Positions 12,290 through 60,928 are shown, numbered from the stretch's first letter. The stretch is DNA of 64,000 nt from Moniliella sp. 'wahieum' (GCA_003971905.1 RSEE01000046.1:434001-498000), one strand, 5' to 3'. Notes: generated from the sequence alone by a model not told the origin. Program-made: numbers and translations.

Positions 12290-12774
12290 AAACCCATGCA
12301 TCACCATCATCCATCATGGCACTGAGTACTTAGTACTTAGTACTGTAGAGTATTGCCGGTCACACTACGATCGAGTGATGGGTTAATAAGTCACTTTAAA
12401 GTTTAATGTTCATAGTGTTGGTGATCAATGATCGAGATCAATGACGAGTGACTGGTGACTAGTGATCGATGATATCTATGCGATGCATGATGCATCATGC
12501 CTGCTCTGCGCTCATAAACGTACCATAAACGCGGGAACGCGTTTTCGACTTCATCAGGAGCATCATGCATCATGCATCGCTCCTCACGCATCACGCGTCA
12601 TCTCTTCCCCGCTCTGATATCTGCGATCTGAGTCTTGAGGGGTTCCTGACCGGCCGACCGCTTGAGGCAGGTCCTCAGGCCACGCGACCAAGGCCTTAAG
12701 GCCGTTAAGTCATACTGCTACCAGACCATAACCGTGGCCATTCTTAGATCTTAGATCTTAAAGCTCTTAAAACT
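12290..12774. repeat. Cluster of 7-bp-period TNA+palindrome micro-arrays
   Basis: TGAGTACTTAGTACTTAGTACT, GTGACTAGTGATCGATGA, TGCATGATGCATCATGC, TCATGCATCATGCATC, TTAGATCTTAGATCTTA. Confidence 0.8.
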
Positions 12775-12934
12775 TGTCGGCCTCGCTACTACCACAGAAT
12801 GTGAGCACTGAACGTCGTATTGGACTAAGAAGCTTCTGCGACTGACTCGTCCAGAAGACTGGTGCGAGCTCGGAAGGAATGAAAGCTGACTCACGTGACT
12901 CAGGGTCCGCGCGGTCCTAGGACGGATGTCAACA
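12775..12934 (-). repeat. 3' LTR of the copia element
   Basis: TGTCGGCCTC...GGATGTCAACA; preceded on the minus strand by a short purine tract AGCGGGGG. Confidence 0.97.
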
Positions 12935-15900
12935 CCCCCGCTGACCGGAGGGCCCAGTCATGTGGACTGGATCCATCTCCTCGACGCGGAGTTGAGCAAG
13001 ATGGCTTGTCAGGGCGGGACGGCCGAGAGGCTTGGTGAGGACGTCCGCTGGGTTCCTTTCGCCGGGGATGTGTACAAGTATGGCCTCGCCCGAGTCCACG
13101 TGTTGCCGTACATTGTGGTACCGGATCTTCAGCTCTCGGAGCTTGCCGGTGCTGCCAAATTTGTGGGCGAGATCGACGACAGACTTATTGTCGCAATACC
13201 AATGAATGGGTGTACCCTCGCCGATGGCCCCAAGCTCGATCATGATGTTCTTGACATAGTTGGCGTCAACCAGTCCATCATATCCTGCCGTATATTCGGC
13301 GGCGGCGGTACTGGTAACGCTCTTCGGCTGAAGAATGGATCGCCACGACACCGGCACACCGTACACCATCAGTAGGCATCCAGATGTGGAGCGTGCCTGG
13401 ATGGGATCTCCCGCCAAGTCGGAATCTGTATACAGCGCAATGGCCGGTGCATCTGATGTTGGGGTCAACCTCAGGCCCTTTCCTCGAGTATGGTACAGGT
13501 AGCGAAGGAAGTCATCGACTGCTTGATGATGCTGCTGCGATGGGTCGGCAGCGGCTCTGCTGAGGGCCGTGATAGCGAAGAGGGAGTCAGGCCGGCCCAT
13601 TCGTGCAGCCCACAGTCCCGATCCGATCTTCCCCTGATATGCCTTGCGCAAGGCTGGGAGGGATGGGGGTTCAGGGTCGGCACGGGGCGGTATCATCCGT
13701 ACGGGATGTGGGAGAGTCCGGATCCACGGGGCTTTGATGTGGTGCTTTGCCACCACTTCCTCGATGAACTTTGGTTGGCTCAGGTACAGCTCCCCACCGA
13801 TCCGATCGTATTGGCATCCCAGGTGGTAGTGAAGGGGACCGTTACCACGAACATCAATGTGTGTGTTTATCTCGGCCATAAACTCCTCGTACTTTTGGTG
13901 TGACTTGCATGCGAGGAGCAGATCGTCGGTGTGGACCGCCAGGAGGATCTGCTCACCCGGTGGTGCAGCGCGCACGAACAAGCAGGGCTCGGTCAAGCTT
14001 TGCGTGAAGCCGAGCTTGTCACGCAGCAGGTTCCGGATGTATCGTGCCCAGTTTGCTCCGCTCTGATGTAGCCCGTATAGACTCTTCTTGAGACGCCACA
14101 CGCGACCACCCGCTTCGGGGAAGTAGGGGGGTGGGCGGATGTAGACTGCTTCTTCGAGGGGGGCGTTCAGGTACGCTGCATTGACGTCCGCCGAGAAGAG
14201 GCCAAACTTATACTTCTCGGCCAGCACGACGAGGGTCAGGATGGCAGGTGTGCGCACCGATGGTGCGAACGTCTGGCCCCAAGTCTCGGCCGATTGTTGG
14301 TGTCCGCCCGCGACAAAGCGCGCGCGGTGGCGCAGGAACCGGCCCTCGGCGTCCGTCTTTGTGGTGATGCGCCATAGTCCTATGAGGATTTGTGCACCCG
14401 GTGGTGGGTACGTAGCCTCGTAGGTGCCGTATCGCGCGAGTGTGGCCACCTCGTCGGCCATAGCCTGCTTGACCATGGCAAAGGAGGGGTGAGTCTCGAG
14501 ACCCTTGAGCGTCTTGGGAGCGAGGGGTACGCCATCCTTGGTGAGCTGAACCGTGTCCGGGTGGATGGGTGCGCTGAGAGCAGTCATGGCGGCGTATTCG
14601 GGAGGTTGAACTGTGTCGGCAAACGGGGGGGCGGATGTGTCAGGTAGGGGGCGGGCGATGCCGATCTCTGGTGCGGCGCAGTGGGGCGTGGCGGCTGCAG
14701 CACGAGCATGGTAGGTCGTGTCGGTGGGGTCGTCAGCGATTGGGAGTGTGTGCAGGTCGAGGGAGGTGCGGGTGGTGCGCTGGCGGAGGGGGTAGCGGCG
14801 GGGGGGGGTGGTGGTGGGAGCGGGTGTCTGGGGTGTGGCGGCGGTTCGGGGCATGGGTGCTGCCGCGGCTGGCGGAGTAGGGTTAGCGTCTTTTTCACTG
14901 TCGATTTTAATTTGAGGTGATTTGGAGATGTCGGGTGGGAAGTGGTCGGGGTGGAGATGGGGGTAGATGGCGTTGCCCCATTTGTACGGTTTCGACCAGC
15001 GGTAGGTGAAGGTACCCAGGGATGGTTGGTATGTGGCGAAGAGCCATCCCTTTGATCCGCGCTGATGGTGGTATCCTACCAGCATACCTTCCTCTGCCCG
15101 CGCGCTGAGCTTGTGCTCGCGGCGTGACTCGGGCAGATGGAGGTATGCAACGCGGCCAAAGGGTTGCATCGGTAACGAGTATGCGTGGCCTTTGTATCGC
15201 TCAAATCGCGATTTGTTGTCTTCCCCGGATGTTTTGAGTGGCATTTGGTTTTGGGTGAAGCACGCAGCGTGGAGGCTGTGTTCCCACCAGTCCGACGTCG
15301 GAAGACCTGTACCCAAGAGCAACTGCCTTGCACGAGTCGTTATGGTTCGGATGGCACGCTCAGCCACACCGTTGCTAGCACTCTGCCCCGGGATTGTCCG
15401 TTCTGACGTGATGCCTTGCTCGTCCAGAAAAGGTTGCAGTGCGCTTGTCAATTCGGGGGCGTTGTCCGTGCGCAAAGTCCGCAGCAGTCTGTCCGGGCCG
15501 TAGCGTTGCTCCCGCAATATGAGGTTCCGCAGTTCCTTCGTTGCAGCGCCCTTTGTCGGGATCGCTGTGGTGAAGACGTACCGCGTGAAGTCATCAACGG
15601 CGACGAGGGCGTATCCGTGCCCCATGCCGGTTACCCGGGGGAGGTCTACTACGTCGACGTGGAGGACCTCGAAAGGTCTTTTGGATCGGAGGCGGTCCCG
15701 GCTCGGATGGGGCGATGCTGTCGCTAGTGCCACCGCGCATGTTGGGCAATCCCACTCTGAACGACAGAGGGAGATATGCTTGGCTGTGACGCGGAGGCCT
15801 GCGGTTTCCGATCGTGTAAGCCAGGGGAGGAGGTCGATGGCTGCGTGGTTCCAGCGTTTGTGGGCTTTAGAGACGTGGTCCAGGGCCAGGGATGCTGCGA

Positions 15901-16369
15901 GGGAGTTTGGGGTTGAGGGTGGGTCGGCCGGTTTGATCGGTTTGGTCGCCATGGCCCGCAGGGGTGTGGGTGGCGTTCGCGGGTTGTGTAAGATCGTGAA
16001 TTGATAGTCACTGCCGGTTACTTTTCGTAGGGTGGATCCTGGGTTACCAAGCCAGATACCCTTCTGGTGTGGGGCGAAGTATGATGCGATTCCGGTGTTC
16101 GACAGGTGTGCTACACTGACGAGATTTCGGCTGAAACGGGGCATGTATAGGCTGTTGGGGAGTTTTATCTCCATTTGGTGTCCTCCTAAGCATCGGATAC
16201 GGATTGTGGCCGTGCCTCGTCCTTCCGCCTTTACATGTGTCCCGTTAGCAACCTCTATCTCGTCGTCGCAAGGGGTCATGGATGTGAAGACGGATTTGTC
16301 TTTCCAAATGGATGGGAATGCCCCACTGTCATATAATGCCCGGATGATTCGCATTTCGCCCCCGAGTTC
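12929..16369 (-). CDS. pol: Copia Pol polyprotein (protease, integrase, reverse transcriptase, RNase H)
   Basis: Protease YDSGA. Integrase HKRWNH...CPTC, LHVDV, RTDNAPE, NGVAERAIRT, LVGY...KGW. RT RARFVAGG, DVNAAYLNAPL, LKKSLYGLHQSG, VHTDD. RNase H YTDSD, AEY, CDNKS, NPADVLTK. The ORF is uninterrupted. Confidence 0.97.
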   Translation of the reverse strand, partial: ELGGEMRIIRALYDSGAFPSIWKDKSVFTSMTPCDDEIEVANGTHVKAEGRGTATIRIRCLGGHQMEIKLPNSLYMPRFSRNLVSVAHLSNTGIASYFAPHQKGIWLGNPGSTLRKVTGSDYQFTILHNPRTPPTPLRAMATKPIKPADPPSTPNSLAASLALDHVSKAHKRWNHAAIDLLPWLTRSETAGLRVTAKHISLCRSEWDCPTCAVALATASPHPSRDRLRSKRPFEVLHVDVVDLPRVTGMGHGYALVAVDDFTRYVFTTAIPTKGAATKELRNLILREQRYGPDRLLRTLRTDNAPELTSALQPFLDEQGITSERTIPGQSASNGVAERAIRTITTRARQLLLGTGLPTSDWWEHSLHAACFTQNQMPLKTSGEDNKSRFERYKGHAYSLPMQPFGRVAYLHLPESRREHKLSARAEEGMLVGYHHQRGSKGWLFATYQPSLGTFTYRWSKPYKWGNAIYPHLHPDHFPPDISKSPQIKIDSEKDANPTPPAAAAPMPRTAATPQTPAPTTTPPRRYPLRQRTTRTSLDLHTLPIADDPTDTTYHARAAAATPHCAAPEIGIARPLPDTSAPPFADTVQPPEYAAMTALSAPIHPDTVQLTKDGVPLAPKTLKGLETHPSFAMVKQAMADEVATLARYGTYEATYPPPGAQILIGLWRITTKTDAEGRFLRHRARFVAGGHQQSAETWGQTFAPSVRTPAILTLVVLAEKYKFGLFSADVNAAYLNAPLEEAVYIRPPPYFPEAGGRVWRLKKSLYGLHQSGANWARYIRNLLRDKLGFTQSLTEPCLFVRAAPPGEQILLAVHTDDLLLACKSHQKYEEFMAEINTHIDVRGNGPLHYHLGCQYDRIGGELYLSQPKFIEEVVAKHHIKAPWIRTLPHPVRMIPPRADPEPPSLPALRKAYQGKIGSGLWAARMGRPDSLFAITALSRAAADPSQQHHQAVDDFLRYLYHTRGKGLRLTPTSDAPAIALYTDSDLAGDPIQARSTSGCLLMVYGVPVSWRSILQPKSVTSTAAAEYTAGYDGLVDANYVKNIMIELGAIGEGTPIHWYCDNKSVVDLAHKFGSTGKLRELKIRYHNVRQHVDSGEAILVHIPGERNPADVLTKPLGRPALTSHLAQLRVEEMDPVHMTGPSGQRGC

Positions 16370-17617
16370 CTAGTAGTCAGCTGTGCCCGCATCAACGTCA
16401 ATCACTTCAGACTCGGGAGAGCTCGCTCTCTGAGCGACGTGAGCGTTGGCTCGGCCTGGGTTGCGCGGAGGGACAACAGGTTTATTAGACGTCGCGCTGC
16501 GCCAGGGTTGGTTGGTGCGGTCTTGCCCCTTGGTCTTTGTGTCCGCGAGGTTGTCGTCGCCGGCTTTGCCCCCGCTGGAGTTTTTTCCCCCGCTGGTGGG
16601 TCGTCCCCCGCTGTCGGGTCGAGTCCAAGGCGTTCCTCCGTTGACCGGCTTGCCTCCGTTTCTCTTCCTTTCTCCACCGGGATACGTGGCGGCTGGTATG
16701 TCCATCACGGCCTGCCGTAACTTGTCTAGACTCGAGCGCTCTTCACGCTGGCGAATGCTCATGTCGCGTAAGCCGAGTAGGATCCCAGTGCGTTCCTGCT
16801 CTTCCGTAAGTGGGATGCCCGCTCGCGTCAGGCTTGCACTGATCTCTTCCATGTAGTCGAGGTAGTCTCGACCCGATCGGTTTCCTTGGTCGGCCGAAAA
16901 GTAGCGAATGAGTAGAGGCCCTCTGTTTGCGGTAGGCGTATATCCATACCGCTGACGCAGCATGTTCAGCGTGTCCTGGGTGCATGATATTTCGTGGTGG
17001 GTGCGGATCGTCCGGAAGAGGGTTGACGGCATGGCTTCCCTAAGAAGGTTGTGCAAGCGTCTGTCGAGGTCCTCGGTGAAGTAGCGGGAGCTGCGACCAT
17101 TCTGGACGACGTCGCTTGCGTGGGGGTGGGCATCTGTTATCGCGAAGAGAAATTCGTCTTCCCAAGCGCTGTAGGCGGACGGGTCTTTGTTCAGATCAGG
17201 CCACTTGATATTCTTGGTGGGAGACTCGCGTAGTGATCTGTAAAGGTCGTACTCGGGTCGCGAGGCTGCGCCTGTAGGTGCCCCCAAAGTTGCGTTGGGT
17301 TGAGTTTCCATTTGGTGGATGTTTTGCACCACAAAATTCGTAGCCCGTCGAACCCAGTTTGTCGTGATAGACGTAGGTTCGTCCTTCCATCCAAGCCACT
17401 CGGCTCTGTCGTGTATAGCTCTGTTGATCTTCTCTTTAACGACATCGATGTCGTTCGTCTTCTTGAACCACAGGTGCGCTTCGGCGCAAAGCATCATGAG
17501 TTCCTCGTTGTCGGTGCCAATCGGTGGCGGATCGCGACCGGTTGGTGTCCAGTAATCGCGCTTGTTCACCATTGTGGTGTCGCTGACCGAGAGATCGGTG
17601 TTAGCGTTGGCGCCCAT
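16370..17617 (-). CDS. gag: Copia Gag (no CCHC knuckle visible)
   Basis: Long ORF between the 5' LTR and pol; first ATG outside the LTR is at 17617 (MGANANT). Gag-like helical core (YSAWEDEF...DYLDYMEEISASLTRAG...ILLGL) and basic Gly-rich C-terminus. Confidence 0.85.
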   Translation of the reverse strand: MGANANTDLSVSDTTMVNKRDYWTPTGRDPPPIGTDNEELMMLCAEAHLWFKKTNDIDVVKEKINRAIHDRAEWLGWKDEPTSITTNWVRRATNFVVQNIHQMETQPNATLGAPTGAASRPEYDLYRSLRESPTKNIKWPDLNKDPSAYSAWEDEFLFAITDAHPHASDVVQNGRSSRYFTEDLDRRLHNLLREAMPSTLFRTIRTHHEISCTQDTLNMLRQRYGYTPTANRGPLLIRYFSADQGNRSGRDYLDYMEEISASLTRAGIPLTEEQERTGILLGLRDMSIRQREERSSLDKLRQAVMDIPAATYPGGERKRNGGKPVNGGTPWTRPDSGGRPTSGGKNSSGGKAGDDNLADTKTKGQDRTNQPWRSATSNKPVVPPRNPGRANAHVAQRASSPESEVIDVDAGTADY

Positions 17618-17671
17618 GGTTGTGGGTGTAGTTTTGGCCAGCTCAGGGATGAGCAGATAAGGATGTAACTC

Positions 17672-17831
17672 TGTCGGCCTCGCTACTACCACAGAATGTG
17701 AGCACTGAACGTCGTATTGGACTAAGAAGCTTCTGCGACTGACTCGTCCAGAAGACTGGTGCGAGCTCGGAAGGAATGAAAGCTGACTCACGTGACTCAG
17801 GGTCCGCGCGGTCCTAGGACGGATGTCAACA
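17672..17831 (-). repeat. 5' LTR of the copia element
   Basis: Matches 12775-12934. Confidence 0.97.
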
Positions 17832-17836
17832 AAACT

Positions 17837-20800
17837 TAAGCTTTATGGCCTCAGCGCGCTGACATGTATCACAGCGCCTCAGCGTGGGCTGCCGCGCTTG
17901 GGTAGAGTTATACAAGTGGCATAATACAGGTTGCCCTCCGTAACGCAGGAAGGCGTGAACGCCCAAACGGTGAACGTGAACGGATTCTATAGCGCATAGC
18001 GCTGGGCCGTGGCAGGTGGCGACCCAAATCCTGAGGAAAGAGGGTTATGAGAGGGGCTCCACAGCATTATGCATTTTTTACAGGAGGTCCGCCGCAGCCA
18101 ACTAGTAAAACAGTCCTACGTTTGCAACTCATGTATCTAACGTGTACCCGTACCCGCAACTCAATAACCGGGGCGAAGCGGCAACCGCGGCCTACTCCAG
18201 GAAGAAACACATGTGCCCCCATGTGCTCGCACATACCCTCACGCGCATCTCATCCGTGGCCTTCTCGCGGCAGGCGGGGCCTCAGCTTGAGGCGCCAGCG
18301 CCTCAGCGCTTCAGCTCGGCCCACATGGCTCGGACACCTAAAGAAATATTCCGTATCTCGCCAACATTTTAACGTTAAAACGTGTTTAGTGTAGTCTTGT
18401 CACCGGGTCACCGCGCTCATGCTCTGAGCCTCTCAGATCTCAGGCTCGGACGCTCATATGCATCACAACGCTCAGCCTAAGCGCTCACATGCATCACAGG
18501 CCTTCGCCTGAGGCGCTCAATCGCCCTCTCATCGATCCGAGTCCAGCATCGCACATGCGTCACGTATAGTGGATGAGATGGAAAGCGGAGTTGTGGGTAT
18601 ATAACCGCGATATGACCGGTAACCGGGGTAACCACACACAGCATTAAAAACCAGTGCGCTCTTTCTGGATCCACGGAGCGACAAGGCAAGGTAGATAGAT
18701 GGTGCTACACCAACAGCCAGGCTACAGTCGAGCACGAGGCCTGAGGCCTGAGGTGTATTCCTCGATTCAGCAGTTGTGAAGGAGGGATCGAATGCTCCCA
18801 TCGCTCCCTCGATGACGCGGCAATAACACTCAGTATAATGGCCCTCGCTGGTGTGCATGAAGATGCATGATGCTCATGATGCGGAATGGTGTGGCTTCTC
18901 GCATCGTACATGGATACAGCCTCATGAATACGTTTCTCAGTCACGAAGTAGGTCGGGCGCCTGTGGCCAACTCTGCAAGCCCCTTCGCTCCCTCACCTCA
19001 AAAATGCTTGAAGCACCTCTCGTCAAGCCTGTGAGCCTCACGCCAGAGCCTTACGCCTCAAGTTAAGAACCCATATGGTTCTCGCTTCTGCTGTTCTGTC
19101 CACCGACCAGACCTGGAGGCAACTGGCTGATTGACGTCCCGGGAGTAGGTATCGTTTTGGTTGGCTCCCAGCTGCACTATTATGCCACCCTCGCTAGGGC
19201 TTCAGGGCAGTATGCCTCATCGATCATCCTGAGAGCTGATGCTGACGGTCAGCGCACTCGCATACTCAGCCACACGTCGATGTGTGACATTTGATCGATG
19301 ATCAATTCTCAGATCTCACCCTTCGCATCACAAACCTCGCATCCTTCTGCTTTGCCCGGCACGTGCACATGTGAGTCAGATTGCACGCACATGTCATACC
19401 TTGGCTTGTGGGGTGGTGTATGGAAGGGCCTGGGAGGGCAGGACAGGGCAGGACAGGGCAGAGCAGGGCGGGCAGAGCAGGGCAGAGCAGGCAGAGCAGG
19501 GGCAGAGCAGGGCAGAGCAGGGCAGAGCAGGGCAGAGCAGGGCAGAGCAGGGCGTAGAAGGGCGTGTGGTACGGGGTGGATGCATGGCGATGATCGATGA
19601 TCGAGAACATCCAACATCCGGTCGCCAGAGCCCCATTCATATTCATGCATCATGCATCATGCCCATGCATCATGTATTCGACAAGAAACATGTAGCGACT
19701 AGCCAGGTTGCGAGCAGCGTGCAACCAGCTACTCTGGCCCAGAAATCGGGACCCTTCCAAACCCTTGCTCTCCCAGAGTCCTGGGATCGGGCACGCCCAG
19801 ATCGTCGTCTCTGCGTGTGAACGTGACGCGTCGGAGACGGAGTGGGAGGTCCAAATCGGTGATCTATTTCAGATCTCAGATCTCAGATAATCGATAATCT
19901 CGATAATCTCAGATCGCAAGCCCTGGGGCTGGCGCCTGACACAGTTTTCAGAATGCGACACAGGAGACCCGCGCCCTCGCTGCAATGGGGGTGGCTTGGG
20001 CACCACTCACACAGCGCCTTCGGCCGCAGGAGTGGAGCTTGGTGGAGCTCGCTAGCGCCTCGTGCGAGGCCGCGCGGGAGGGCTGGCAGGGCACCAGCAG
20101 GGCACCGTAGGATGCACTCATTATACCAGTCGATTCAAGCTTGAAGCTTGAAGCTAGAAGCTTGAAGCTGAAGCTATTAATTCTATTAGTGACTAGTGAC
20201 TAACTTGACTAGTGACTGTGACCATGTGACCAGTGATTAATGATTAGCAGTAGACCACTTTCAGTGTGGCAAACGGTCTCGGAGGTCCATTCCCATACAT
20301 CATGCATGCATGTCATGCAAGCCCCAAAAAGGGGGCCAACAGAAGGGTCCTTCGGCCTTACATCCCCGAGATTACCGGTTGCCGGTTACCGGTTAGATCT
20401 TAGACCTTAGGATGCAGGCCTGGGTCGCAGACATCCTGTTACATGTTAGTCCGGTCAGGGCCAGGTCACCGGTCAGGCCCCGGTCACGGTCAGGCCAGGC
20501 CGCTGAGTACCGCCGTCGTGGATCTTGCAGCTGCCCGTGCTGGTTCTATCTGCGACCATTGGCGGCATCCGCACGTTTAATTTGGGCTACAAGTTCCCCC
20601 GTCCTAAACCGTCCATTGAATATTGATATTGAGCGTCCTGCTCAGCCTGAGCGGAGCGCGCTGAGCCACGGAGCATAAATATAGGCTGACGCGACGCCTT
20701 GACGTCCATCTTTGATGCGCAGGTACACTATCAGAAGACTCAGTTGGGCATGGTACTCATGCTCGGGCTGTCTGGCTCTGATGCACCTGATGCTGGTGGC

Positions 20801-20860
20801 TGCTATTGGCAAGTTTTCTGCTGTCTCGGACAGCCTTCACATGTGATGTCACATGTCACA
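17837..20860. repeat. Long non-coding region with many TNA+palindrome micro-arrays
   Basis: GAGGCCTGAGGCCTGAGG (~18736), TCAGATCTCAGATCTCAGAT (~19869), TCAAGCTTGAAGCTTGAAGCT (~20135), GTGACTAGTGAC (~20189), TTACCGGTTGCCGGTTACCGGTTAGATCTTAG (~20372), TCACATGTGATGTCACATGTCAC (~20837). Confidence 0.75.
19435..19553 (+). repeat. Pentamer-based tandem repeat (GGGCAGAGCA)n with GGACA variants
   Basis: Read directly; a related degenerate tract lies at ~11995-12030. Confidence 0.9.
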
Positions 20861-21351
20861 CAGCCGCTCTAGCCTGCTCCAGCTGCGGCTGTGGCTACAG
20901 CCACAATCACCTAAACTTAAATTGCCACTCCAACCTCCACCAGCCACGCGTCACGATCCACGCGCCACACCATTGCATTGCTAGCACCCCCAAAACGCCC
21001 CTCCAGCACACACGATCTTGCTCAGCGCTCATCGACCCATTGATCGCTTTGTACCTATAGTAATAGATCGCAAAAGCCCTAATAAGCGGTTGTCTGAATA
21101 CACCGTGACAAAGTGCTAGTGAAATGCAGCGACGTACTACGGCAGGCAGATGCGTGGTCTGAGATCTGAGCTACCAACAGAAGCATGATCGAGAACGAGG
21201 TAACGAGTTGAGCGAAGTGGGGATGGTAAGAAAGAACAGAGGAATGCGCCATCGGTGTCTACTACACGTGTGGCTTCCAATTGGAATAAAATGTGGAGGT
21301 GCCACGTGGGAGCGCAGCGCAGGCCAAGTCTAGACCAAAAATCTCCAACTA

Positions 21352-21545
21352 CTAGAAGACCACCGGGCCTACGGCCCGGTCAGCTGGGGCTTCGCCCCAG
21401 CTTGGTGTGCTTGGTGCTGCGTCGCCACCTTAGCCACCGTTCCACCGGTCCACCGTAGCCACCGTTCCACGCTGGAGGGGCGAATTTTATCACCCATATG
21501 CATCGGCCTGGCTGCGGCTGTCTGGAACGTGCCAGGTGGCATGCT
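21352..21545 (-). mobile_element. Putative Helitron-like 3' end, copy A
   Basis: The minus strand reads hairpin AGCTGGGGC-GAA-GCCCCAGCT, hairpin ACCGGGCC-GTA-GGCCCGGT, then GGTCTT-CTAG|T. Homologous to 37850-38072 in the opposite orientation. Confidence 0.6.
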
Positions 21546-21921: not shown

Positions 21922-22092
21922 CCCTTTCCCTTTCCCTTCCTTTCCCTTTCCCTTTCCCTTTCCCTTCCCTTTCCCTTTCCCTTTCCCTTTCCCTTTCCCT
22001 TTCCCTTTCCCTTTCCCTTTCCCTTTCCCTTTCCCTTTCCCTTTCCCTTTCCCTTTCCCTTTCCCTTTCCCTTTCCCTTTCCCTTTCCCTTT
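21922..22092 (+). repeat. (TTCCCT)n hexanucleotide microsatellite, ~170 bp pure pyrimidine
   Basis: Read directly from the sequence. Confidence 0.98.
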
Positions 22093-22659
22093 GATGGGAA
22101 ATTGACTGAACCACGGTGACTTCCCACAGTCCATAAACACGACGGCCTTCCTTTCGGTCATCAGTTCTGGCCCAAATGTGAAATAGACCTGTACTATCAG
22201 TTATTATCTGAGTGGCATTTTTCTCCTCTTACGAGACCTTACGGTTAGCGGGAATTTTTGTCCATCAACTCGTTATCGTCGAGCTAGTTTCGGCCTACGA
22301 TTTGAACATCGTCGAAGGAGACCCAAAAAGGTGGCCACAGCATCGTTAGGAGTGTCAGACTCGCGCCATATGCTGGGGGAGGGGGGGCTTGACCCACATC
22401 TGTGGGCCCCTCTATAGCGTGATTCCTATTAGAACATGCACCAAATCCTGCGACCACCTTTCAGCTGTTCCCACTTCCTTCATGAAGTACATATACCTCC
22501 TGTCCGTTCCGCAATTTATATCCATCCATCTGTTGCCTTCTTTTCCTCCCTACCTCTCACGTTTTGCCGGCATACAGAAAAACACCTCTCTCTGACTTCG
22601 CGCCGCATCGCTGCATAGGCAGCTCCTATGTGAGAGTATATAGATATAACAACAGTTCT

Positions 22660-22810
22660 TCGCCTCTCGAGTGTCTCGCTCTTTCCCTGTTTTTCTGATT
22701 CGCTCCATGACCTCTGTTTTGGCATGTTTCTTCCCCCCCAACGATTCGTACATTCATCGACCTTGTGTCGACTCTCTGGTCTCCCTCGCCTTAAGTGCCC
22801 CGACTGTCAA
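22660..22810 (+). repeat. Dispersed repeat, copy 1 of 3
   Basis: GTCTCGCTCTTTCCC...CCATGACCTCTG...AACGATT...CTCTGGTCTCCCTCGCCTT...GCCCCGACTGT, shared with 25440-25610 and 61096-61260. Confidence 0.7.
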
Positions 22811-24958: not shown

Positions 24959-25067
24959 TTCTCCTTCTCCTTCCCTTCTCCTTCTTCCCTTCTCCTTCTC
25001 CTTCTTTCTCCTTCTCCTTCCTTCTCCTTCTCCTTCTCCTTCTCCTTCTCCTTCTCCTTCTCCTTCC
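24959..25067 (+). repeat. (CTTCTC)n polypyrimidine microsatellite
   Basis: Read directly from the sequence. Confidence 0.95.
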
Positions 25068-25439: not shown

Positions 25440-25610
25440 GCTATTCCAACTTCGTCGTCCCGAACGTCTCGCTCCTTTCCTGTTCTTATTCCACTTCGAA
25501 CCATGTCCTCTGCTTTCGCTTCTTTCCCACCACGAGAACGATTTTTACGCTCCTTGCCCTAGTCCCGACTCTGGCCTCCCTGCCCGCCTTAGCCCCGACT
25601 GTGACAGCCT
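25440..25610 (+). repeat. Dispersed repeat, copy 2 of 3
   Basis: CGTCTCGCTCCTTTCC...ACCATGTCCTCTGCT...CTAGTCCCGACTCTGGCCTCCC...TTAGCCCCGACTGTGACA. Confidence 0.75.
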
Positions 25611-32463: not shown

Positions 32464-33900
32464 CTACGTCTCGAGCAGCTGCTGTGCAAAACTTCCTGCC
32501 TGGGCCATAGAATCGGATGCACCATCCGACGCAGCAGCCGCAGCAATGGCCTCTGCACCTCAGCGCTTGGCTCAGCATGCCGCCGCGCGAGCGCGTGCGC
32601 GCTTGGTGCGGTTGCCCCTCCTAGCTGCTATCCGCCACGATGGCCGGATGCTGGGCAGCGTATTCCTGCATCTGTGCCTGCAGTTGTGCCATGTCCATCC
32701 CGGTCGTCATCTGGCTGTCATCGGCTGCTTGGGGGTGCTGCGAAGCGTCAGGCGCAAAACGCTGCAAATACAGGAGCCAAGCATGGATACTGGCACGGGC
32801 CGCCGCCTGGGCCGTCTGGTGGGCCGCAGCATGCAACTGCGTGATCGTAGTCTTGCGGCGGCGCTGTGAGCCTGGACTACGCGCGACAGGCACCGAATTC
32901 ATCACCGATGCGTATGCGGCGGCAGCTTGGTGGGCTTGTAAATGCAGTTGAGTTGCCTCTTCAACAGCGGAAGCCGTCTGGGCCTCAAGCTGTTGTCGCA
33001 TCTTTGTCTTTTGGACCTCAAGCCGTTGTCGCTTCTTTGTCGCTTGGGCCTCAAGCCGTTTTCGCTTCTTTGTCTCTTCGTCCATTCGGGGACGGCCGCC
33101 CGTCTTGCCCTGGTTATACTTGCGCTCGTTCGTGCGCTTCTTTTCGGGTACAGGGGTCAGAGGATCATCAACTGGGAGCGCTGGGGGTGGGGTAAGCGGA
33201 GACGACGTCACCAGCCTCAGATGTGCCTGCCACTGTCCGCCCTTCTTCGTCTTCCTTCTCTTGGTCATCTGGCTGCTGAGATGGACTGAGTTTGCGTCGT
33301 TTGGTAGGAGGGCGTCGATGAGGCTTTCGTTCCTCGTTGGGAAGCCCAAGTTCGCTACGCAGAAACCCGTTTCGCAGCCCCTCCTCAATAGAGGGGACCG
33401 GTGGTGCTGGTTGAAGCCAGACACCCTCCTCCTCATCATCCTACACAAAAGGTCCAAGGTTAGTACCAACGAAAGGAAAGTAACGGGTCAGACTCGAAAC
33501 TTGGTACTTACCCACAGAGTCTTGTGGAGAATGTTCTTCCAAAAGGGGATCTCTTGGTTCGAGCGTTTCATGCGCAATAGCTCATTACGCGACTTGTCCT
33601 TGAGTTGCACATTGTTGCGTCCTGCTAGCATATTGGAACGTTCGCCCCCAACGCCATGCCAGCGCAAAACAACATTATAGGGACGAATTGAAGGGTGCGC
33701 TTGCTTGTACGCACAAATTTCGTCCAGCGATTCAAGCAGCACTTCTGCCTCTATGGCCTCCCATGAGACGCGACCATTGGTGTTACCGCCTGTGCTGTAA
33801 TTGGAGCCGCCCTTAATGTAAGGTAAGCCACTTTTCTTGTTGGGGCCAAACAGATGGTGCAACATACTATTAAGCGGAGGAAGGGGTTGGATCGTGCCAT
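32464..33900 (-). CDS. Telobox (Tbf1/TRF-like) Myb-domain protein with basic repeats and Ala/Gln-rich tail; ends approximate
   Basis: RVSWEAIEAEVLLESL...YNVVLRWHGVGGERSNMLAGRNNVQLKDKSRN resembles the Tbf1-type R.xVQLKDKARN helix. Intron 33441-33511, a GGRPR motif and three ~11-aa LEAQATKKRQR-type repeats follow. Confidence 0.65.
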
Positions 33901-34440: not shown

Positions 34441-34527
34441 CGCCCCACGTGGGACTCGAACCCACAACCGTGAGATGGACCTCTTCAGCATAAGAGTCTC
34501 AAATTCTACCGATTGAAATAGCGAGGC
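34441..34527 (-). tRNA. tRNA-Lys(CTT) with 14-nt intron
   Basis: GCCTCGC acceptor stem pairs with GTGGGGC. Anticodon arm TGAGA-CT-CTT-A[intron TGCTGAAGAGGTCC]A-TCTCA. T arm GTGGG-TTCGAGT-CCCAC. A T6 Pol III terminator follows directly. Confidence 0.9.
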
Positions 34528-37849: not shown

Positions 37850-38072
37850 TGCCGACCGGTGCCACGTTCCCAGCCACCCGCAGCCAGAGAATCGGTGATA
37901 TTATTTGCCCTCTCCAGCGTGGAACGGTAGCGACGGTGGAACGGTGGCTAAGGTGGCGAAGGGGACCGGTGGCTAAGGTGGCGAAGGGGGAACGGTGGCT
38001 AAGGTGGCGACGCAGCACCAAGCTGGGGCGAAGCCCCAGCCGACCGGGCCGTAGGCCCGGTGGTCCTCCTCG
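37850..38072 (+). mobile_element. Putative Helitron-like 3' end, copy B
   Basis: Three subterminal CGGTGGCTAAGGTGGCGA repeats, hairpins GCTGGGGC-GAA-GCCCCAGC and ACCGGGCC-GTA-GGCCCGGT, then GGTCCTC-CTCG|T. Confidence 0.55.
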
Positions 38073-40381
38073 TATATACATCCTCTCAGCCATATCCTCA
38101 GGCAACAATTATTATGAACCCTATCACCCGGTTGAGTGGCTTAGCTTGATGTTGCATCATGCCACTCCCTACGCCGTCGCTTCGGCTCCGATGAGGTATT
38201 ATAACAGGGTATAGAGCAGAAGATAGTGTCATGAGTGACGACGGGGGGCCGAGCCCGACCGAGTCCGGCCGAACTCTTCCCCTCCCTTTGGCAGTACCGC
38301 CTAAGAAAAGATGGTGCAGGTGGATCTTGTTTGGTGAACCCCGCAACACAGCTCCTGTCCACTTTCCGTCCTTCTCGTTGATATATTATCGACTACCGTC
38401 GTCAACCGCAACGCACTCAAGAATAACAGTATTGCACTTTTGGGGTATCAACGGTTTCGTTCTCTGTTTCCAACCCTCTGACACCTGTGAAGAACATATC
38501 TTTTACCAACCGCCAATGGATGACAGGTTGCCTAGCGACCAACGACCGACAAGGGTGTGGTGATATGGAGGTATTGTATCGGTAACAATTGTCGAAAAGA
38601 GGCCAGGTGGCATCCGCTTTTCCTATGCCTTTCATTCGCTTTCCCTTCCCCTCTCATATCTCATCTCTATCCTTGGTCTGCAATGTAGGGCAGTTGCCAA
38701 GTATATGATTCCATTAGACACCGTATGGCATGCAAGGCTGAGGTGTGGACGAGGGAAGAGAGCCTCTACGAATCAACCGTAAAAAAGAAGAATGTTGGCT
38801 ATGATGGTGTAGCTCTCACCAGCAGGCCAGAGAGTATATAAGGGTTAGCATGACACTGTTGTGAGAGATTGGCGAAAACACAGACGGTAGGCGACTGACG
38901 AAGACGGGGACTGGTTCCGACAGACCACTTTCGCCCTTTCTCTCTTCGAGCTTTAAGCTTCATCGATCATCGATCAACCACATGTCTTCATCGATCATCT
39001 GCCTACGTTTGCATCTGCACAAATGGCGGAGTTTTTACTGCCACCTCGTCTGTTGGTTGAGGTGACCTTTGAGGTGACCTTTCCGGGAGGCCTGAGTAGG
39101 TTGCAGTTTTGATCTGAACTCGAACGTTGCTGTTTCACCATAACGGACGTCTGAAATTCGGAAAGCGGAAGCGGAAAGCGGAAAGCGGAACGTTGAACAT
39201 CGAACGTTGAACCGCGGCTACGTCACGGTGACGTATGCACGCGGGATATACTAGAGTACACTCCCTCTCATATCCCGCTCTCCCGCAAAAGGGGTGTCTG
39301 GGGCCCCTGTCAGGTAGCCGAGGTCTGCCACTGCCATAGAGCTGTGAAGTCCTCTTGGGCCTGCTAGGCCCCTTTTCGCCTTGGCGGCACCCGCACCACA
39401 GCAGACCAAGCCCTCTGCTGGCCAATGCCCGCCCAGGATCTGGAGTGCTAGTGGCGTGCGAGATACCTGATGGGGGTGGTCTTCCGGTGACTCTAGGTCG
39501 GGCAGAGCTTATCTAATGGACAGAGCACCCTTGATACCTCGGTGCTGTTCTGAGGCGCTCGCAAAATATGTGGGCAAAAAAAGACGCACCAATTCATTGC
39601 CCCCGCCGATCTGCCCGCGTGGGAGCACACTGAAGTACTGGCTAAATCAAGTGAGTAGTGCGACACCGACCTGGTTAGGTTTGGAGGCACGCTGGGTCCC
39701 TCTCGCCGCTGCCAGACGGAGGGGGACGCTGGAGACGTGCGTCTCCCAGGATGGACACCACGTGCTGGAGACCGTCTGGCCCCTCCTGTGCATCACCGCC
39801 CTCAGCGAGCTCAGTACGTTTACAGTGCTCAACGCCAGATACTCAGCTCGATCAGATGTCAGATCTCAGATCGGAGCGCTGGGCGTGTGATATTGATACG
39901 CGCCCAGCCTCAGCGCCTCAGCAGAGCCTCTGCCTTCCGAATGAGGCCGGAGGGCCTCAGCGCCTGTGAACGTGAGCCTGTGAACGCATGTGCATGTGAG
40001 CCCTCTGGCCTCTCGCGCCACATGCGTCATGCTGGGGTGTGTGCACACGCGTAGTGACCGCCTTCGCGACTCTCGCGGCGCCTTGTTGGTTCGCACCCGA
40101 GGGCTCCTACTGTAGCTACGATAGCGACAGGCCGCGCCCGCTAGGCTGTAGAACAGGCCAGACCATAGGCTAGGCCAGTGGTGGCTGGACAACCCCTCGC
40201 TCAGCCGCACCATCCGTCTCTTTGTTCCGTCCGCATCGCCAGCATCGCATCAGCGACCCTTGCATCCTAGCACCGCACCAGCCCGTCGATTAGAGCCCAC
40301 ACGCGACCCGGCGTTCGCTTATGCTCACCATCTCCATCTCCACCTCCATCTCATTCTCCCTCGCCCCTCTCCTTCCCCCTC

Positions 40382-47774: not shown

Positions 47775-49140
47775 CGTAACATGTCGCATGTCACACGTCA
47801 CATGTGTCACGTGTCATGCATCAGATCATGCATCATGCATCATGGAGCCACACACTAGCCAGCGGCCGTGATCTCAATGACCTGTATGATCGATCATCGA
47901 TCACATCACGCATATGTTTTGTGCATGTTACCGGGGTTACCAGCCGGCGGGGTTGTGTTACCTGTTAGCAACTATGCGAGAGGCGGCCGAACAAATTCGA
48001 GACAATTGTTCGGAGGTTCAAGCTTATTGCAGCTTGACTCGCGTCCCTCACCTTTCGACTTCCATTGCCCCACCCTTCTATATCCGCGGTCGTGCCCCCT
48101 TTCGACTCCCCGTCAAGTCGCTGTGCCTTCGGTTTTATTTCTTTCGCCTTATTAGCTCCCGGTACTTCTCAGCCACACAACCTGTAGTTTTTCGTTCCCA
48201 GTCTTCCGATTGCCCCTCCCGCCCTGTGGCTTGGCATCACATATAGTAGAGACGCCGTGTCATTCATGTCATCGTCGATTCCACGCAGGGGAGGCGTGGA
48301 CATGTTTGTTGAGCATCGGGTGTGGCTCGTGCTTTTTGGCCAATGTCCCTTCATCCTCATCAGGCCTGGGAGAGTTCCATTGTTTTCTCTCTCATGTTTT
48401 TCCTTGTTCCGCGCTTAGCCCCTATACTGGTGGCGACTCGCTGCTTGGTGTTCCTCTGGAGGCGTTGCCGGCTGCTTAGATCACCACCACCACCAGTGCG
48501 ATTGCATCACCTTTGAGGACCATCAGGACTCCAGGTCTCATCACATGCATTTGACTCGATCTTCTCGATTCTCAACTCACCGACTCATCCTCCATGCATC
48601 AGGCCCGCGCATTCAGTACTCCCCCCAGTCACACCTGCATTGCAGGAGCAGGCGGCTTTTGCCTCGCGTCAGCCCTCCTATGAAAGGGATATGTCGTCCT
48701 ATGTACTCCACTAAGTAAGCCTAGGCGGCTATAACCACATCAAGGGGGCGTTGTCCCTGAGTCATAGAAGGTCATAAAATGACCAAAATTTACCCCGCAC
48801 CGACATGCTCACGTAACCGCGCGCAGAAGTGACTAGTGACTAGTGACTAGTGAAGCTTGAAGCTTGAAGCTTGAAGGAGCAAGGCAGGGGAAGAAGTGAT
48901 GCAAACAGGGGAAAGCAGTCCACAGGCGCCACAGGCAGGGGGAACAGAGGCGGAACGGGGCCCCTTTGCACAGGATTGTTCAGTTGAACGTTGAGCGTTG
49001 AGCGCTGAGCAGCTTAGTACGTCCATGCAACGTTCAACGTTCAACTGAACGTTCAACGTTTAATCAATGGATCCGCGTTGCCCACCTGCCGTTGAGGTGC
49101 TGCGCCAGGGTTAAGACTTAGAACTTAGATCTTAACCCTG
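47775..49140. promoter_or_regulatory. Divergent GNAT/GPC1 intergenic region dense in TNA+palindrome arrays (regulatory role inferred only)
   Basis: (TGACTAG)3(TGAAGCT)3TGA at 48830-48874; TCATGCATCATGCATCATG; TGAACGTTGAGCGTTGAGCGCTGAG; CAACGTTCAACGTTCAAC; TTAGAACTTAGATCTTAA. Confidence 0.5.
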
Positions 49141-49278
49141 GACAGGTCGCCTCAGGGGCCCCAGAAGAGCCACAGACGCGCCAGGGTCCTTCAAGGCACA
49201 CACGTCCCTTCCCACGAGTCCCCACTGCATCCCATCCATCTGCCTCTTCCCCCCGCTTTGACACTCCCCACCACAACC

Positions 49279-52339: not shown

Positions 52340-53487
52340 GGGAGCAGTGCGGGTGGGGGGGAAGAGGGCCCTTCATGCCCGTGATGAACAGGAAAGACGA
52401 GGGAGACGAATTCCTCACGACGGCTTCGTGTCGTGCCGGGCATATATACAACTCGGCTCTCCCATATAGCTACCCCCCCCCTATAAGGGGCAGATGCTTT
52501 AGCATGGTACCTCACTGGCACGTTATACGTGCTGTTAAACGTGTGGTGAGTGGTTTTGTTGGGCCGCCCCCATTACGAAACTGCCACATGGCGCATTGGG
52601 GCCTATAGGGGAGGGAAATCAGATACAGCGCCCAGCGCACGACGATTTGGTGCCTGTTTCGAGAGATACTGAGTAATGGTACGTCTCTGTCGGCGACAGC
52701 CGGTCACCGGTGATAATGCCCGGCCCGCGAGGAACTGAACGTCACCCGTGCTGTGGTCAATAGCAAAGCTAAACAGAGTTTCTGTTGTCTGAGAGGCAAG
52801 GGGGTTGTAGCGGCCACTTAGTAGTACTTATATCTTTGAGAGAGGGCATGTGGTAGAGGGGTCGTGCGGCAGAGTGCAAACAGACGGCGTCATGGATGCT
52901 CTCACACACAGTGACACGTGACATCTGCTGGCGAGGGCCACACCGAGGTTAAATTGGGAAGATATACAACGGAATTTTTTTCACGCCTGCACCTTTTTGC
53001 CGCGAGTTGTTTTGAGGTCTAAGGGTAGAAAAACTCACTTCGCCGATCCTACGCCCCCCCTTCCACCCCCCTTCGGCCTTCAACTTGGTCTCCGATTGGA
53101 GGGTTGCCGGTGGCTTTTGTGCAAGCGTACACGACAATATGCTGGCTTCGGTGGTCGTCCGTTTGATGTCGAAGCAAAAGCAGGCCGGCTGGCTAATGGG
53201 GATGAGTCAATGAGAGATGCCACCAGGACGACATTTCGATGCCACCAACACAGAAAGAAGAAAAGTTCGCGTCACAACATATACATAGTCTTCAAACAAG
53301 ACAAAACTTACAAGTCAATTCACAACTCATCTTGAGTTATTCTCTTGCAGCCGGGTGGGCAGGTTAAGCATTACGAGCGCAGCGGTGGCAGCGACAAAAC
53401 GACTTTTTCACCATCATAGGCGTTATATGAGGTGGGTCTCCAGTCGGAGATTGGGCACGATCTAATCCCACCAGAGGGTGTCATGCA

Positions 53488-53600
53488 CAAAAGCCACAGC
53501 CCAACATGGAAGGACGACGGTTCATCACAAAAGCCGCAGGCCCAACATGCAAAGACGACGATTGATAAAAGCCGCAGGCCCAACATGAAAGCGACGGCTC
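53488..53600 (+). repeat. Degenerate ~40-bp tandem repeat x3 (AAAAGCCGCAGGCCCAACATG core)
   Basis: Read directly from the sequence. Confidence 0.8.
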
Positions 53601-56294: not shown

Positions 56295-56365
56295 GGGTTA
56301 AACGTTAAACGTTAAACGTTAAACCGAACAGCGATCGATGATCGATGATCGATGATCGAGGTGAT
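56295..56365. repeat. (TAAACGT)3 followed by (TGATCGA)3-4 micro-arrays
   Basis: GGTTAAACGTTAAACGTTAAACGTTAAAC and GATCGATGATCGATGATCGATGATCGA, upstream of NMNAT. Confidence 0.9.
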
Positions 56366-56560
56366 TCGGGGCTATGAATATAACCGCTGCTAGGGTTGAC
56401 CGTACTAACGCACTGTTGCGATTGGGGCGCACCAGCCCCGTTCATCGTCATCAATCACCGATCATCTCAGTCATCCTGGTCGACGACTGCCGCCCGCTCC
56501 TCCCACCAGCATCGCCGCCGCTTGCCCGTCCTTATCCCCGTCCCTCCTGTCCTCATCTCC

Positions 56561-59601: not shown

Positions 59602-60639
59602 GACGGAAAGGGTGGACGGAGGGAGAAACGAAGGCGATGGAGACGCTGGCGGGGTGTCGAGGGTTGGGCAGGGGGGGTGGGCCTTATATCTATCTTCTGT
59701 TGGGGCCACTGCGCTTTGATCCTGGGGGCCAGAAGAAGGAGCCCGAGAGCATCAACGATTCCACAACACGTCATGCAGTCACAAAGTCACCATATGTCTC
59801 GGTCACACACGGGGCCACCCGACCTCAGGCGCATCATGACGGTCCTGCCAGTCATGAAGGTTGTGTCGGAGCTCTCAAGCTGACTGCCTCAACCCACCAG
59901 CACCTACCTACTGCCCCCTCGCCCACTGTGTGACGTCATGCACGTTGACCTTCACACAGCGCCGAGTCAACGAAAATGGCCTACGAAGAAGGGAGAGACT
60001 CTGGTTGCGCGTCGATCCCCGTCGGCCTCATCGGCCTCAGTGCTCTCAGTACCTTCGTATTCTCAGTGCATTCGTGCTCTCGGTACTCACAGTGCCTCAT
60101 TCAGGCAAGCCGACCATTAGAGTAGACCTCAGACGCTCATTGCATCGGTCATCGACATCGTCGTCTCTCTTAGGCCAACCCTGACTATGGTGATCGATCA
60201 GGTGATCCAACAAAAGTGCAATACCCGATTCACTATTGCCCATCCCCAAAGTACCATCATATTGGGGTTACCAGGTTACTATTATTCTTTTGCTGGAGTG
60301 TGCCTGAGTGCCTGTCACTTGTGTTTACTCCAGAGTGTGATGAGTACTGAGTGGGAATCAGAAAGGAGTTTGGGACGAGCACGCCGCCGCAATGCTTGGC
60401 TCCTTTTGTGTTAAGAGTCTGAGGAAGACGAGTAGACCCACAAAAAGGATTCGTGGGTAGAGGGGAGTAGACATGGCCAGGAAGGGCCGGGAGACGAAGG
60501 AAAGTTGATTACAGGATTAATACCTAAAGGCCTTTATAACCACAGAAGACCGCAACACCCTCTCTCTCAATACAATGGAGAAGACTCTCAATACCTTCCT
60601 GCAACATTGAACGTTCTGGATTGGTTCCTGATGGAGCCA

Positions 60640-60928
60640 GCCTGAGGCCCGAGCGCTTCTGAGCGCTGCTGAGCCTCTCAGCCTCAGCGCTCAGCCTCAG
60701 TGCTCAGCCTCAGCTCAGTTCTCTGAGAGTTGTGCGTCCTCGCATGTGACATGTGATCGTCGTAACCCCTGACTGATGCATGTGATAATAGGGAGATCCC
60801 CCCACAAGAATATCCGCTGTATCACGCATCTCAGCGCCGAGGCTCAGCGCTCAAACTAAGCTGTCTTCCCTTCTTCCTTTGTCAGCGGCTAACGCTTGTG
60901 GCTTCAAGCTTCAAGCTTCACTCACTAG
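60640..60928. repeat. Cluster of TNA-based micro-arrays
   Basis: TCAGCCTCAGCGCTCAGCCTCAGTGCTCAG, CATGTGACATGTGA, GCTTCAAGCTTCAAGCTTCA. Confidence 0.8.

Follow-up and report, generated by a model that had tools for sequence, protein, structure and literature searches.

Introduction

P-nucleotides are short palindromic additions that occur at V(D)J junctions and at hAT/Transib-type excision junctions, where they arise via hairpin opening. Ultra-short palindromic inserts, also in tandem arrays, are represented by the mobile G+C clusters of yeast mitochondria and by the MUSE elements of Podospora mitochondria, and the STRR heptamers of cyanobacteria are among the heptamer repeats of bacteria. In quasi-palindrome or short template-switch mutagenesis, a process associated with the work of Ripley, Lovett, and Loytynoja and Goldman, a turn-around of the nascent strand creates or perfects short inverted repeats. 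For the intergenic TAACTGA heptanucleotide direct repeats of Beggiatoaceae, cyanobacteria and Bacteroidetes, the authors of one study state that they see no evident mechanism (PMC4679880); MUSE1 is cited in a further paper (PMC7218506).

Here we describe a 64,000-nucleotide (nt) stretch of the genome of Moniliella sp. 'wahieum' (GCA_003971905.1 RSEE01000046.1:434001-498000), the whole of which is referred to as the window and in whose positions all coordinates are given. Its non-coding DNA carries numerous short arrays, together termed the lattice, that follow one rule: T-N-A, then a 4-bp palindrome, repeated with a period of 7 bp, or equivalently A-NNNN-T palindromic hexamers spaced by one base. 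The window has its preference for period 7 in common with a known but unexplained class of bacterial repeats; the rule of symmetry and flanking bases described below was not seen in that class. A literature search found no description of TNA plus palindromic-tetramer heptads, and PMC3152781 and PMC7218506 turned out to concern other matters. We consider the feature most likely to be a scar left by mutation, one whose grammar can be defined.

The seven-base rule

A first-pass annotation of this DNA had read its intergenic arrays as TNA alternating with an interchangeable 4-bp palindrome, and counting against dinucleotide shuffles and other spacer lengths upheld that reading in full. The arrangement TNA-N4(palindrome)-TNA was observed 89 times, compared with 8.6 +/- 2.6 in 40 dinucleotide shuffles. 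Only the 4-bp palindromic spacer was enriched: palindromic spacers of 2, 6 and 8 bp between TNA triplets occurred near expectation (34 vs 33.7, 4 vs 2.1 and 1 vs 0.6, respectively), and TNA-N4-TNA with a non-palindromic filler showed no enrichment (121 vs about 128).

The periodicity was equally sharp. Period 7 made up 35 of the 114 rows returned by Tandem Repeats Finder for the whole window, and exact tandem duplications of at least two copies numbered 41 at this period, where 50 dinucleotide shuffles gave an expectation of 3.2 and a maximum of 11; the corresponding figures were 3 vs 1.06 at period 8 and 52 vs 12.8 at period 6. Exact period-7 copies reached four per array, and 24 of the 41 duplications could be rotated to a 6-bp palindrome plus one base, with the form A-NNNN-T in all 24. 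Identical palindromic hexamers recurred at an offset of 7 bp 23 times (0.25 in shuffled DNA), again with outer A..T in every case, while offsets of 5, 6, 8 and 9 bp gave 0-1 each and hexamers of the types C-N4-G, G-N4-C and T-N4-A were absent at offset 7 (0, 0 and 0).

The anchor itself is a direct repeat and not part of a 10-bp palindrome: N was identical across the tetramer in 74 of the 89 units (2.45 +/- 1.8 in shuffles) and complementary in 8 (2.5 in shuffles). Same-N TNA triplets around palindromes of 2 or 6 bp were found 11 and 1 times (9.1 and 0.6 expected), and same-N anchors of other kinds around a 4-bp palindrome gave observed/expected values of 2/2.3 for ANT, 8/6.1 for CNG and 5/6.1 for GNC. 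Nothing comparable to TNA with a 4-bp palindrome was found for the anchors ANT, CNG, GNC, TNT, ANA, CNA, GNA and TNC or for other filler lengths; the largest remaining excess was that of TNG with a 4-bp filler (9 vs 3.8), TNG being one base off TNA. Both T and A are required, as among 147 N-A-pal4-T-N cores (pal4, the 4-bp palindrome) 74 had T and A on their respective sides, 26 had A only (7.5 expected), 17 had T only (7.9 expected) and 30 had neither (27 expected). N is free and is used at about the background frequencies of TNA triplets, with G31 C29 T10 A4 in the lattice against 1058 TCA, 915 TGA, 412 TTA and 347 TAA in the window.

The tetramer is similarly unconstrained beyond its symmetry. 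Fifteen of the 16 possible palindromic tetramers were used, comprising each of the twelve that the first-pass annotation had listed and also TTAA, ATAT and TATA, and the many heptamer units of the window were each seen at most four times. Odd palindromes with arms of at least 6 nt were centred on TNA 24 times (2.6 expected) and stood at expectation when centred on ANT, CNG or GNC. Isolated single units numbered 53, where 2.45 chance seeds were expected, and array orientation was mixed (15 TCA and 11 TGA arrays). Within the 16.4 kb of Pfam-supported open reading frames (ORFs) plus a copia retrotransposon, described below, none of the 89 units was found. These counts confirm that the lattice is real, far beyond chance and highly specific.

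Array ends, flanking bases and inverted pairs

We defined the end phase of an array as the distance over which its periodicity continues past the outermost TNA, and scored it at 136 ends. The counts for phases 0 to 6 were 57, 18, 34, 12, 9, 1 and 5 (chi-square 120 against a uniform distribution, p 1e-23), so that array ends are phased, coinciding either with the edge of a TNA or with the centre of a palindrome, with the odd values fitting chance extension. Forty-eight of 68 chains fell below a whole number of 7-mers (j+k<4), which argues against their having started as tandem duplications of 7 bp.

The bases immediately outside the arrays are related to those within. At 56 of 116 ends, the dinucleotide just outside the array was identical to the half-tetramer next to it, compared with 9.9 when flanks were permuted (maximum 21 in 5000 permutations), and the control register, in which the other half of the tetramer was compared, gave 10 matches. 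This mirror rule was obeyed on at least one side by 43 of 58 same-N chains (17 on the right, 13 on the left and 13 on both sides, leaving 15 on neither), and the number of chains matching on both sides exceeded that expected from one-sided events plus chance. No additional motif was found flanking the sites.

The clearest example is an array at 48828-48876, TGA(CTAG-TGA)x3(AGCT-TGA)x3 with AG on either side, in which CTAG and AGCT share one TGA phase and each mirrors the AG on its own side. Likewise, the chain TTA-CCGG-TTA-GATC-TTA at 20386-20409, preceded by GG and followed by GA, contains two tetramers that each mirror their own flank.

Two pairs of arrays were found in inverted orientation. 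The ATGCAT pair at 12480-12580 has spacer G in its left arm and C in its right, with 21-nt arms that are 95% complementary and 59 nt apart, and its predicted single-stranded fold has an energy of -28.4 kcal/mol (z -5.3). The AACGTT pair at 48978-49062 (TGA-ACGT/gcgt/GCGC against TCA-ACGT) has 23-nt arms, 96% complementary and 27 nt apart, and folds at -26.1 kcal/mol (z -5.96). Such inverted pairs with G-to-C spacer flips indicate that this DNA undergoes strand switching. Single arrays were also predicted to fold as single strands into hairpins with TNA triloops, with z scores of -5.45 (48828-48876) and -3.86, and two of the six arrays folded were no better than their shuffles (z -1.54 and -0.65).

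Related loci

The best named relatives of an 895-amino-acid (aa) non-ribosomal peptide synthetase (NRPS)-like ORF in the window are proteins of Parajaminaea phylloscopi (66% identity) and of Malassezia species (60-62%), a result that places the host within the Ustilaginomycotina; two further relatives are closer, at 82% and 76% protein identity. For comparison we used 35 metagenome-contig loci encoding relatives of this protein (397,923 bases), a set that the 82% and 76% relatives lie outside. No enrichment of TNA-palindrome units was found in these 35 related or orthologous loci, which have at most 67% protein identity. Three loci of 21-23 kb at 61-62% identity gave 7/5.7, 7/5.5 and 2/3.4 observed/expected units and 0, 0 and 1 period-7 duplications, and the 397,923 bases together held 44 exact period-7 duplications, of which 7 had a palindromic rotation and 0 were of the A..T type. 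Because it is missing from these loci, the pattern appears to be lineage-restricted and fast-evolving. The link to the (TCACGAT)n of Ustilago intergenic DNA that had been suggested at first pass holds as far as the placement of the host is concerned, but the relatives at 61-67% protein identity show no enrichment. Comparison of the window with itself by BLAST revealed two small families of dispersed repeats, between whose copies no informative difference caused by a 7-bp lattice insertion was found.

A proposed templated-insertion model

We propose that the arrays are the accumulated scars of a lineage-specific, site-specific templated insertion at T-N-A in non-coding DNA, and that they are neither ordinary microsatellites nor binding sites, a reading to which we assign a probability of roughly 0.45. 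Product structure and specificity are what we observed; the chemistry that might generate them is inferred. The elementary event would add 7 nt, p-TNA-XY-q becoming p-TNA-XY-Y'X'-TNA-XY-q, in such a way that two flank bases would be copied as their reverse complement to give the 4-bp palindrome and TNA would be copied directly. As each event would yield two TNA targets sharing the same neighbours, repeated events would lengthen the array homogeneously and in phase, and use of the opposite flank would begin a second type of tetramer in the same phase. This insertion rule predicts at most one left and one right tetramer per phase, each mirroring its own flank, as seen at 48828-48876 and 20386-20409. 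Subsequent slippage, hairpin-driven changes in copy number and strand switches, the latter giving G/C spacer flips and inverted pairs, could then modify the arrays.

At the level of DNA synthesis, the event might begin with a nick or short staggered break between T and NA. A few nt, four in one concrete scheme, would then be synthesised by strand displacement (or fill-in), and the polymerase would turn onto the displaced or complementary strand and copy Y'X'T, a turn-around that may be likened to the P-nucleotide or snap-back type. The new T would re-align on the template at the position facing the T of TNA, after which sealing would leave a +7 loop. Since this scheme explains neither the 2-nt length of the mirror nor the choice of T-N-A, it would imply that a nuclease, transposase-like or other, contributes both specificity and geometry.

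A mutational origin is consistent with the confinement of the lattice to non-coding DNA, its absence from the 35 related loci, the hairpin potential of the arrays and the inverted pairs. Of two origins suggested in the first-pass annotation, the footprint of a snap-back or template-switch synthesis process fits the anatomy, in that the half added to the tetramer is a reverse-complemented copy of the 2 nt next to it, ends lie at palindrome centres, and the inverted array pairs with their G/C spacer flips agree with it.

Several points weigh against templated insertion. The enzyme, the nick and the intermediate are steps supplied by the model, which gives no reason why exactly 2 nt, never 1 or 3, should be mirrored; the exclusive use of T-N-A is also unaccounted for, as pure microhomology would allow A-N-T, C-N-G and G-N-C equally. 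Among three two-type chains checked, that at 38953 obeys the mirror rule on the left only, and the multi-unit chains at 12456, 47887 and 49046 obey it on neither side. Fifteen of the 58 same-N chains lack a flank match where about 2.5 would be expected by chance, and the remainder would need decay of the flank or another route, while ends that follow a complete tetramer (phase 4, 9 ends) outnumber chance extension from phase 2. All evidence for the lattice, moreover, comes from one 64-kb window.

A broader version of the model, which we put forward tentatively and regard as rather doubtful, is that a hitherto undescribed mutational machine of the fungal germline, combining nicking or cutting at T-N-A with a fixed 2-nt turn-around of synthesis, writes a self-propagating 7-nt unit, made up of the mirrored flank and a further TNA, and so progressively overwrites intergenic DNA with a quasi-palindromic heptad lattice. 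No smaller self-renewing 'element' would then be known, and its definition would lie in a rule instead of a sequence; the bacterial period-7 families may have the same cause.

Alternative explanations

Hairpin-assisted replication slippage alone, in which heptamers self-complementary at 6 of 7 positions escape repair as slipped hairpins and expand from chance seeds, is the alternative that survives best, although we judge it unlikely. It accords with the multi-copy exact arrays, with the head-to-tail copies evident in the 41 period-7 duplications, and with the TNA-triloop hairpins of the two arrays that fold well. It also draws support from bacteria that lack the palindrome rule and nevertheless show a spike of period-7 duplications (60, 68 and 36 per about 100 kb in three genomes, compared with 2-6 at period 8), from which it follows that period 7 can be favoured by something general. 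However, slippage predicts ends of random phase and births in whole units, whereas the ends are phased and 48 of 68 chains are sub-integer in length; chance seeds are too scarce to account for the 53 isolated single units; neither the exclusive use of T-N-A, to the complete exclusion of the C-N4-G, G-N4-C and T-N4-A hexamers, nor that of a 4-bp filler is explained; and two of the six arrays fold no better than their shuffles. Taken together, the phased ends, the chain lengths below whole units and the exclusive use of TNA and of a 4-bp filler indicate that plain slippage fails as the origin, as the first-pass annotation had maintained, but it could still alter copy number later.

Footprints of transposon excision would consist of a 3-bp TNA target duplication plus 2 nt of each inverted terminus, left by repeated hit-and-run insertion at the regenerated TNA. 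PIF/Harbinger and IS5-type elements duplicate a 3-bp TNA target, and PIF-type excision is usually precise, which counts against such footprints. The direct duplication of TNA around a 4-bp palindrome is as this explanation would have it, the units are non-coding with several clusters in gene-upstream or divergent spacers, and, between the ATGCAT arrays, a segment at 12498-12562 starts with TG, ends with CA and has TCA on either side, so that its excision would leave TCA-TGCA-TCA. Transposons that target and lengthen microsatellites also have a reported precedent in MuTAnT (PMC4486113). Element tips should nevertheless fix the tetramer, yet 15 of 16 palindromic tetramers occur and the tetramer follows the local flank. 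Pairs of terminal inverted repeats (TIRs) with 9-nt arms and a TNA duplication were at chance level in the window (1 vs 0.8 in shuffles), and no DNA transposase domain was found by Pfam among its stop-to-stop ORFs of at least 130 aa. We therefore regard footprints as quite improbable.

The other origin suggested at first pass was a lattice for a factor reading TNA-N4-TNA, and here we considered a protein, single-strand or RNA binder that would read TNA every 7 bp under selection in promoters or untranslated regions. The strictly non-coding and often gene-upstream position of the units speaks for such a role, and a regulatory role has been proposed for bacterial intergenic heptamer repeats (PMC4679880). 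Against it, the fixed bases are T and A only, with N free and the tetramer arbitrary, so that the core holds no more than two fixed bases, and no conservation at orthologous positions was found in the related loci, which lack the pattern at up to 67% protein identity. Orientation is mixed, the tetramers copy the neighbouring flank, TNA-N4-TNA with a non-palindromic filler stands at expectation, and an entire intergenic stretch such as 21.2-34 kb is free of units. The suggestion of a factor-binding lattice is thus unsupported, and its probability is low.

An artefact of assembly or sequencing is very improbable indeed: the arrays are known from a single assembly, but the pattern is limited to non-coding DNA, follows a base-specific rule with graded decay and lies on a contig with intact ORFs and two 100% identical long terminal repeats (LTRs), and we know of no error mode that produces flank-mirrored palindromes.

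Other candidates were tried and rejected. A lattice of stop codons was discarded on finding that TGA/TCA orientation is independent of gene orientation and that many units are stop-free on one strand. For P-nucleotides derived from TNA itself, hAT-type nTnnnnAn targets, a topoisomerase II-type 4-bp fill-in and a 7-bp symmetric target duplication, the predicted filler or phase was not seen.

Distribution of the arrays and gene content of the window

The first-pass annotation had described the pattern as window-wide between 12290 and 60928. It is indeed present across that range and in non-coding DNA across the window, but units also occur outside these limits (at 2458, 6543 and 8147-8891), and the distribution is patchy, with some spacers unit-free and none at all in 21.2-34.0 kb. 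Clusters lie at 8.1-8.9, 12.3-12.8, 17.8-21.2, 36.1-36.7, 38.9-39.9, 47.8-49.1, 56.3 and 60.2-60.9 kb, several of them in gene-upstream or divergent spacers. The gene map is anchored by Pfam matches alone, and the 5'/3' placement of arrays relative to genes is accordingly approximate.

The window is eukaryotic in character, with a GC content of ~0.57. Its Pfam-supported genes encode Indigoidine_A, synaptobrevin/longin, complex I 30 kDa, old yellow enzyme (OYE) oxidoreductase, NRPS-like, GNAT, DUF2838, GCV-H, cytidylyltransferase-like and epimerase proteins. A cluster of single units at 8134-8891 contains TGA-TCGA-TGA (8147 and 8373), TCA-TTAA-TCA (8359), TGA-CTAG-TGA (8458), TGA-GATC-TGA (8717) and TCA-CTAG-TTA (8882). 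The next, at 12290-12760, includes (GTAC-TTA) at 12323-12344, (TTA-GATC) at 12742-12760 and an in-phase mixed chain at 12442-12472 (tga-cgag-tga-ctgg-tga-CTAG-tga-TCGA-tga), and adjoins the insertion of a Ty1/copia retrotransposon on the minus strand (12775-17831). This element carries RVT_2 and rve domains and 100% identical 160-bp LTRs (TG...CA), and 5 bp of target sequence, AAACT, are duplicated around it (12770-12774 and 17832-17836); its ORFs are a 1146-aa pol (RVT_2, rve and Pol_BBD) and a 490-aa ORF upstream. It is apparently intact and very young and, though inserted in lattice-rich DNA, holds 0 lattice units. The lattice unit at 17836-17845 has as its first base the T of the copia target duplication, which indicates that the lattice is older than the insertion.

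The densest zone, 17836-21169, holds about 30 of the 89 units, in arrays of AGGCCT-G (18736-18753), TGA-TCGA (19285-19301 and 19588-19604), TCA-TGCA (19643-19674), TCA-GATC (19869-19888), TAA-TCGA (19886-19910), TGA-AGCT (20135-20176), TGA-CTAG (20187-20247), TTA-CCGG/GATC (20372-20409) and TCA-CATG (20837-20860). At 36075-36708, TGA-GGCC-TGA (36075), (CACGTCA)2.4 (36391-36407) and TCA-CGCG-TCA (36699) lie upstream of the minus-strand gene for the OYE-type oxidoreductase, and upstream of the NRPS-like gene, at 38953-39872, are tta-AGCT-tca-TCGA-tca-TCGA-tca (38953-38976), TCA-TCGA-TCA (38988) and TCA-GATC arrays (39852-39872). Degenerate ACATGT-C, TCA-TGCA and TGA/TCA-TCGA arrays occupy 47779-47903 in the divergent spacer between the GNAT (minus) and DUF2838 (plus) genes. 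A TTA lattice, tta-agac-tta-gaac-tta-GATC-tta, is present at 49111-49134; it lies at the exact centre of a 9-nt inverted repeat, CAGGGTTAA / TTAACCCTG (49100-49143), and looks as if it had grown within a pre-existing 14-bp palindrome. Between the GCV-H and cytidylyltransferase-like genes (56297-56359) are (TAA-ACGT)x4 (56297-56324) and (TGA-TCGA)x3.9 (56333-56359). The last cluster, 60191-60920, comprises TGA-TCGA-TCA (60191), TGA-GTAC-TGA (60341), TCA-GCGC-TCA (60684 and 60844), TGA-CATG-TGA (60743-60756) and (TCA-AGCT)x2.9 (60901-60920).

Other features of the window include its sole tRNA gene (34441-34527, minus strand), which probably contains an intron, as its 87 bases span a 71-position model. 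One dispersed repeat of ~170-200 bp occurs at 37863-38065 and, inverted, at 21358-21531 (85% identity over 112 bp), and includes a 26-bp tandem unit (GGTGGCTAAGGTGGCGAAGGGGAAC-like) whose copy number differs between the two copies; another, of ~150 bp, occurs in three copies, one direct and two inverted (61096-61252, 25444-25606 and 22656-22792; 76-77% identity), in which no obvious terminal inverted repeats were found. Long microsatellites of non-heptad type are (CCCTTT)29 at 21922-22092, (TTCTCC)18 at 24959-25066 and (GCAGGGCAGA)11.7 at 19435-19553, the first two lying in a stretch of lower GC content (about 0.49-0.51) without TNA-palindrome units. Minisatellites consist of a 41-bp unit (x2.9, 53481-53596) and a 33-bp unit (x3.0, 32979-33078).

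Comparison with known systems

If the mirror-insertion rule were true genome-wide, it would provide a clean and easily scored mutational signature that betrays, through sequence alone, a novel eukaryotic activity of DNA breakage or turn-around synthesis. It would also be an instance of fast reshaping of non-coding DNA, given that the pattern is missing in relatives with about 60-67% protein identity, and would offer a system in which the birth of tandem repeats, usually an invisible step, could be followed. Dense hairpin-forming, cruciform-prone DNA in gene-upstream regions may also affect fragility, recombination and expression.

The G+C clusters and MUSE elements resemble the lattice in placing a very short palindromic insert between copies of a duplicated 2-3-bp target, but they are defined organelle sequences, whereas the insert in the window is 4 bp, arbitrary in sequence and nuclear. 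Template-switch mutagenesis finds a parallel in the inverted array pairs and at 48985-49008, where ACGT, gcgt and GCGC follow one another; it is not known to be tied to a trinucleotide or to give phased tandem arrays, both of which are present in the window. At P-nucleotide junctions, as at the flank-matched array ends, the addition reverse-complements the end of the flank beside a direct target duplication. Their length is variable and they arise once per excision, in contrast to the mirror of always 2 nt, the TNA anchor and the iterated arrays seen here, and the Pfam scan and TIR search of the window revealed neither a hairpin-forming transposase nor an element.

The bacterial heptamer repeats (TAACTGA and STRR) are the closest phenomenon on record and share with the window a sharp period of 7, an intergenic position, several heptamers per spacer and often a TGA anchor. 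In three bacterial genomes that came up in the scan described below, lattices of the form TSA-N4 x3 numbered 461, 306 and 1414, against 126, 62 and 195 in a reversed control. The bacterial repeats, however, consist of few fixed units at many loci (AACGGTG 16 times and AAGCGAG 13 times per 100 kb), whereas units in the window vary freely; they are seldom palindromic (3/62, 3/68 and 8/36, compared with 24/41); and they are orientation-biased, in contrast to the symmetry rule, flank-copying and eukaryotic host of the window. The 1414 matches were those of an Oscillatoriales cyanobacterium of 7.1 Mb, in which, for example, long (TGATAAT)n arrays adjoin (TGATCGA)n and (ACAATTG)n; this single genome is rich in heptamer families.

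A further, unexpected likeness emerged when prokaryotic genomes were scanned with (TSATCGA)3TSA, which returned at least 122 stretches; among the matches listed, many were in metagenome-assembled genomes of Gemmatimonadales, where (ATCGAT-S)n arrays of 4-6 units are dispersed over many loci per genome. These genomes also carry the TGA-anchored heptamer families TGAACGG, TGAGGGG and TGACCAG, mixed in one phase, and to our knowledge neither the (ATCGAT-S)n arrays nor their companion families have been described. Like the lattice, the arrays combine a palindromic hexamer with one base, and TSA-TCGA is also the commonest unit of the window. They differ in using one tetramer (TCGA in 355 of 362 matches, at loci chosen by that pattern) and in a G/C spacer that flips almost randomly inside an array, where the window keeps the same N in most neighbouring pairs. 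A principle shared between the fungal lattice and the bacterial heptamer repeats is conceivable, and the parallel is worth testing.

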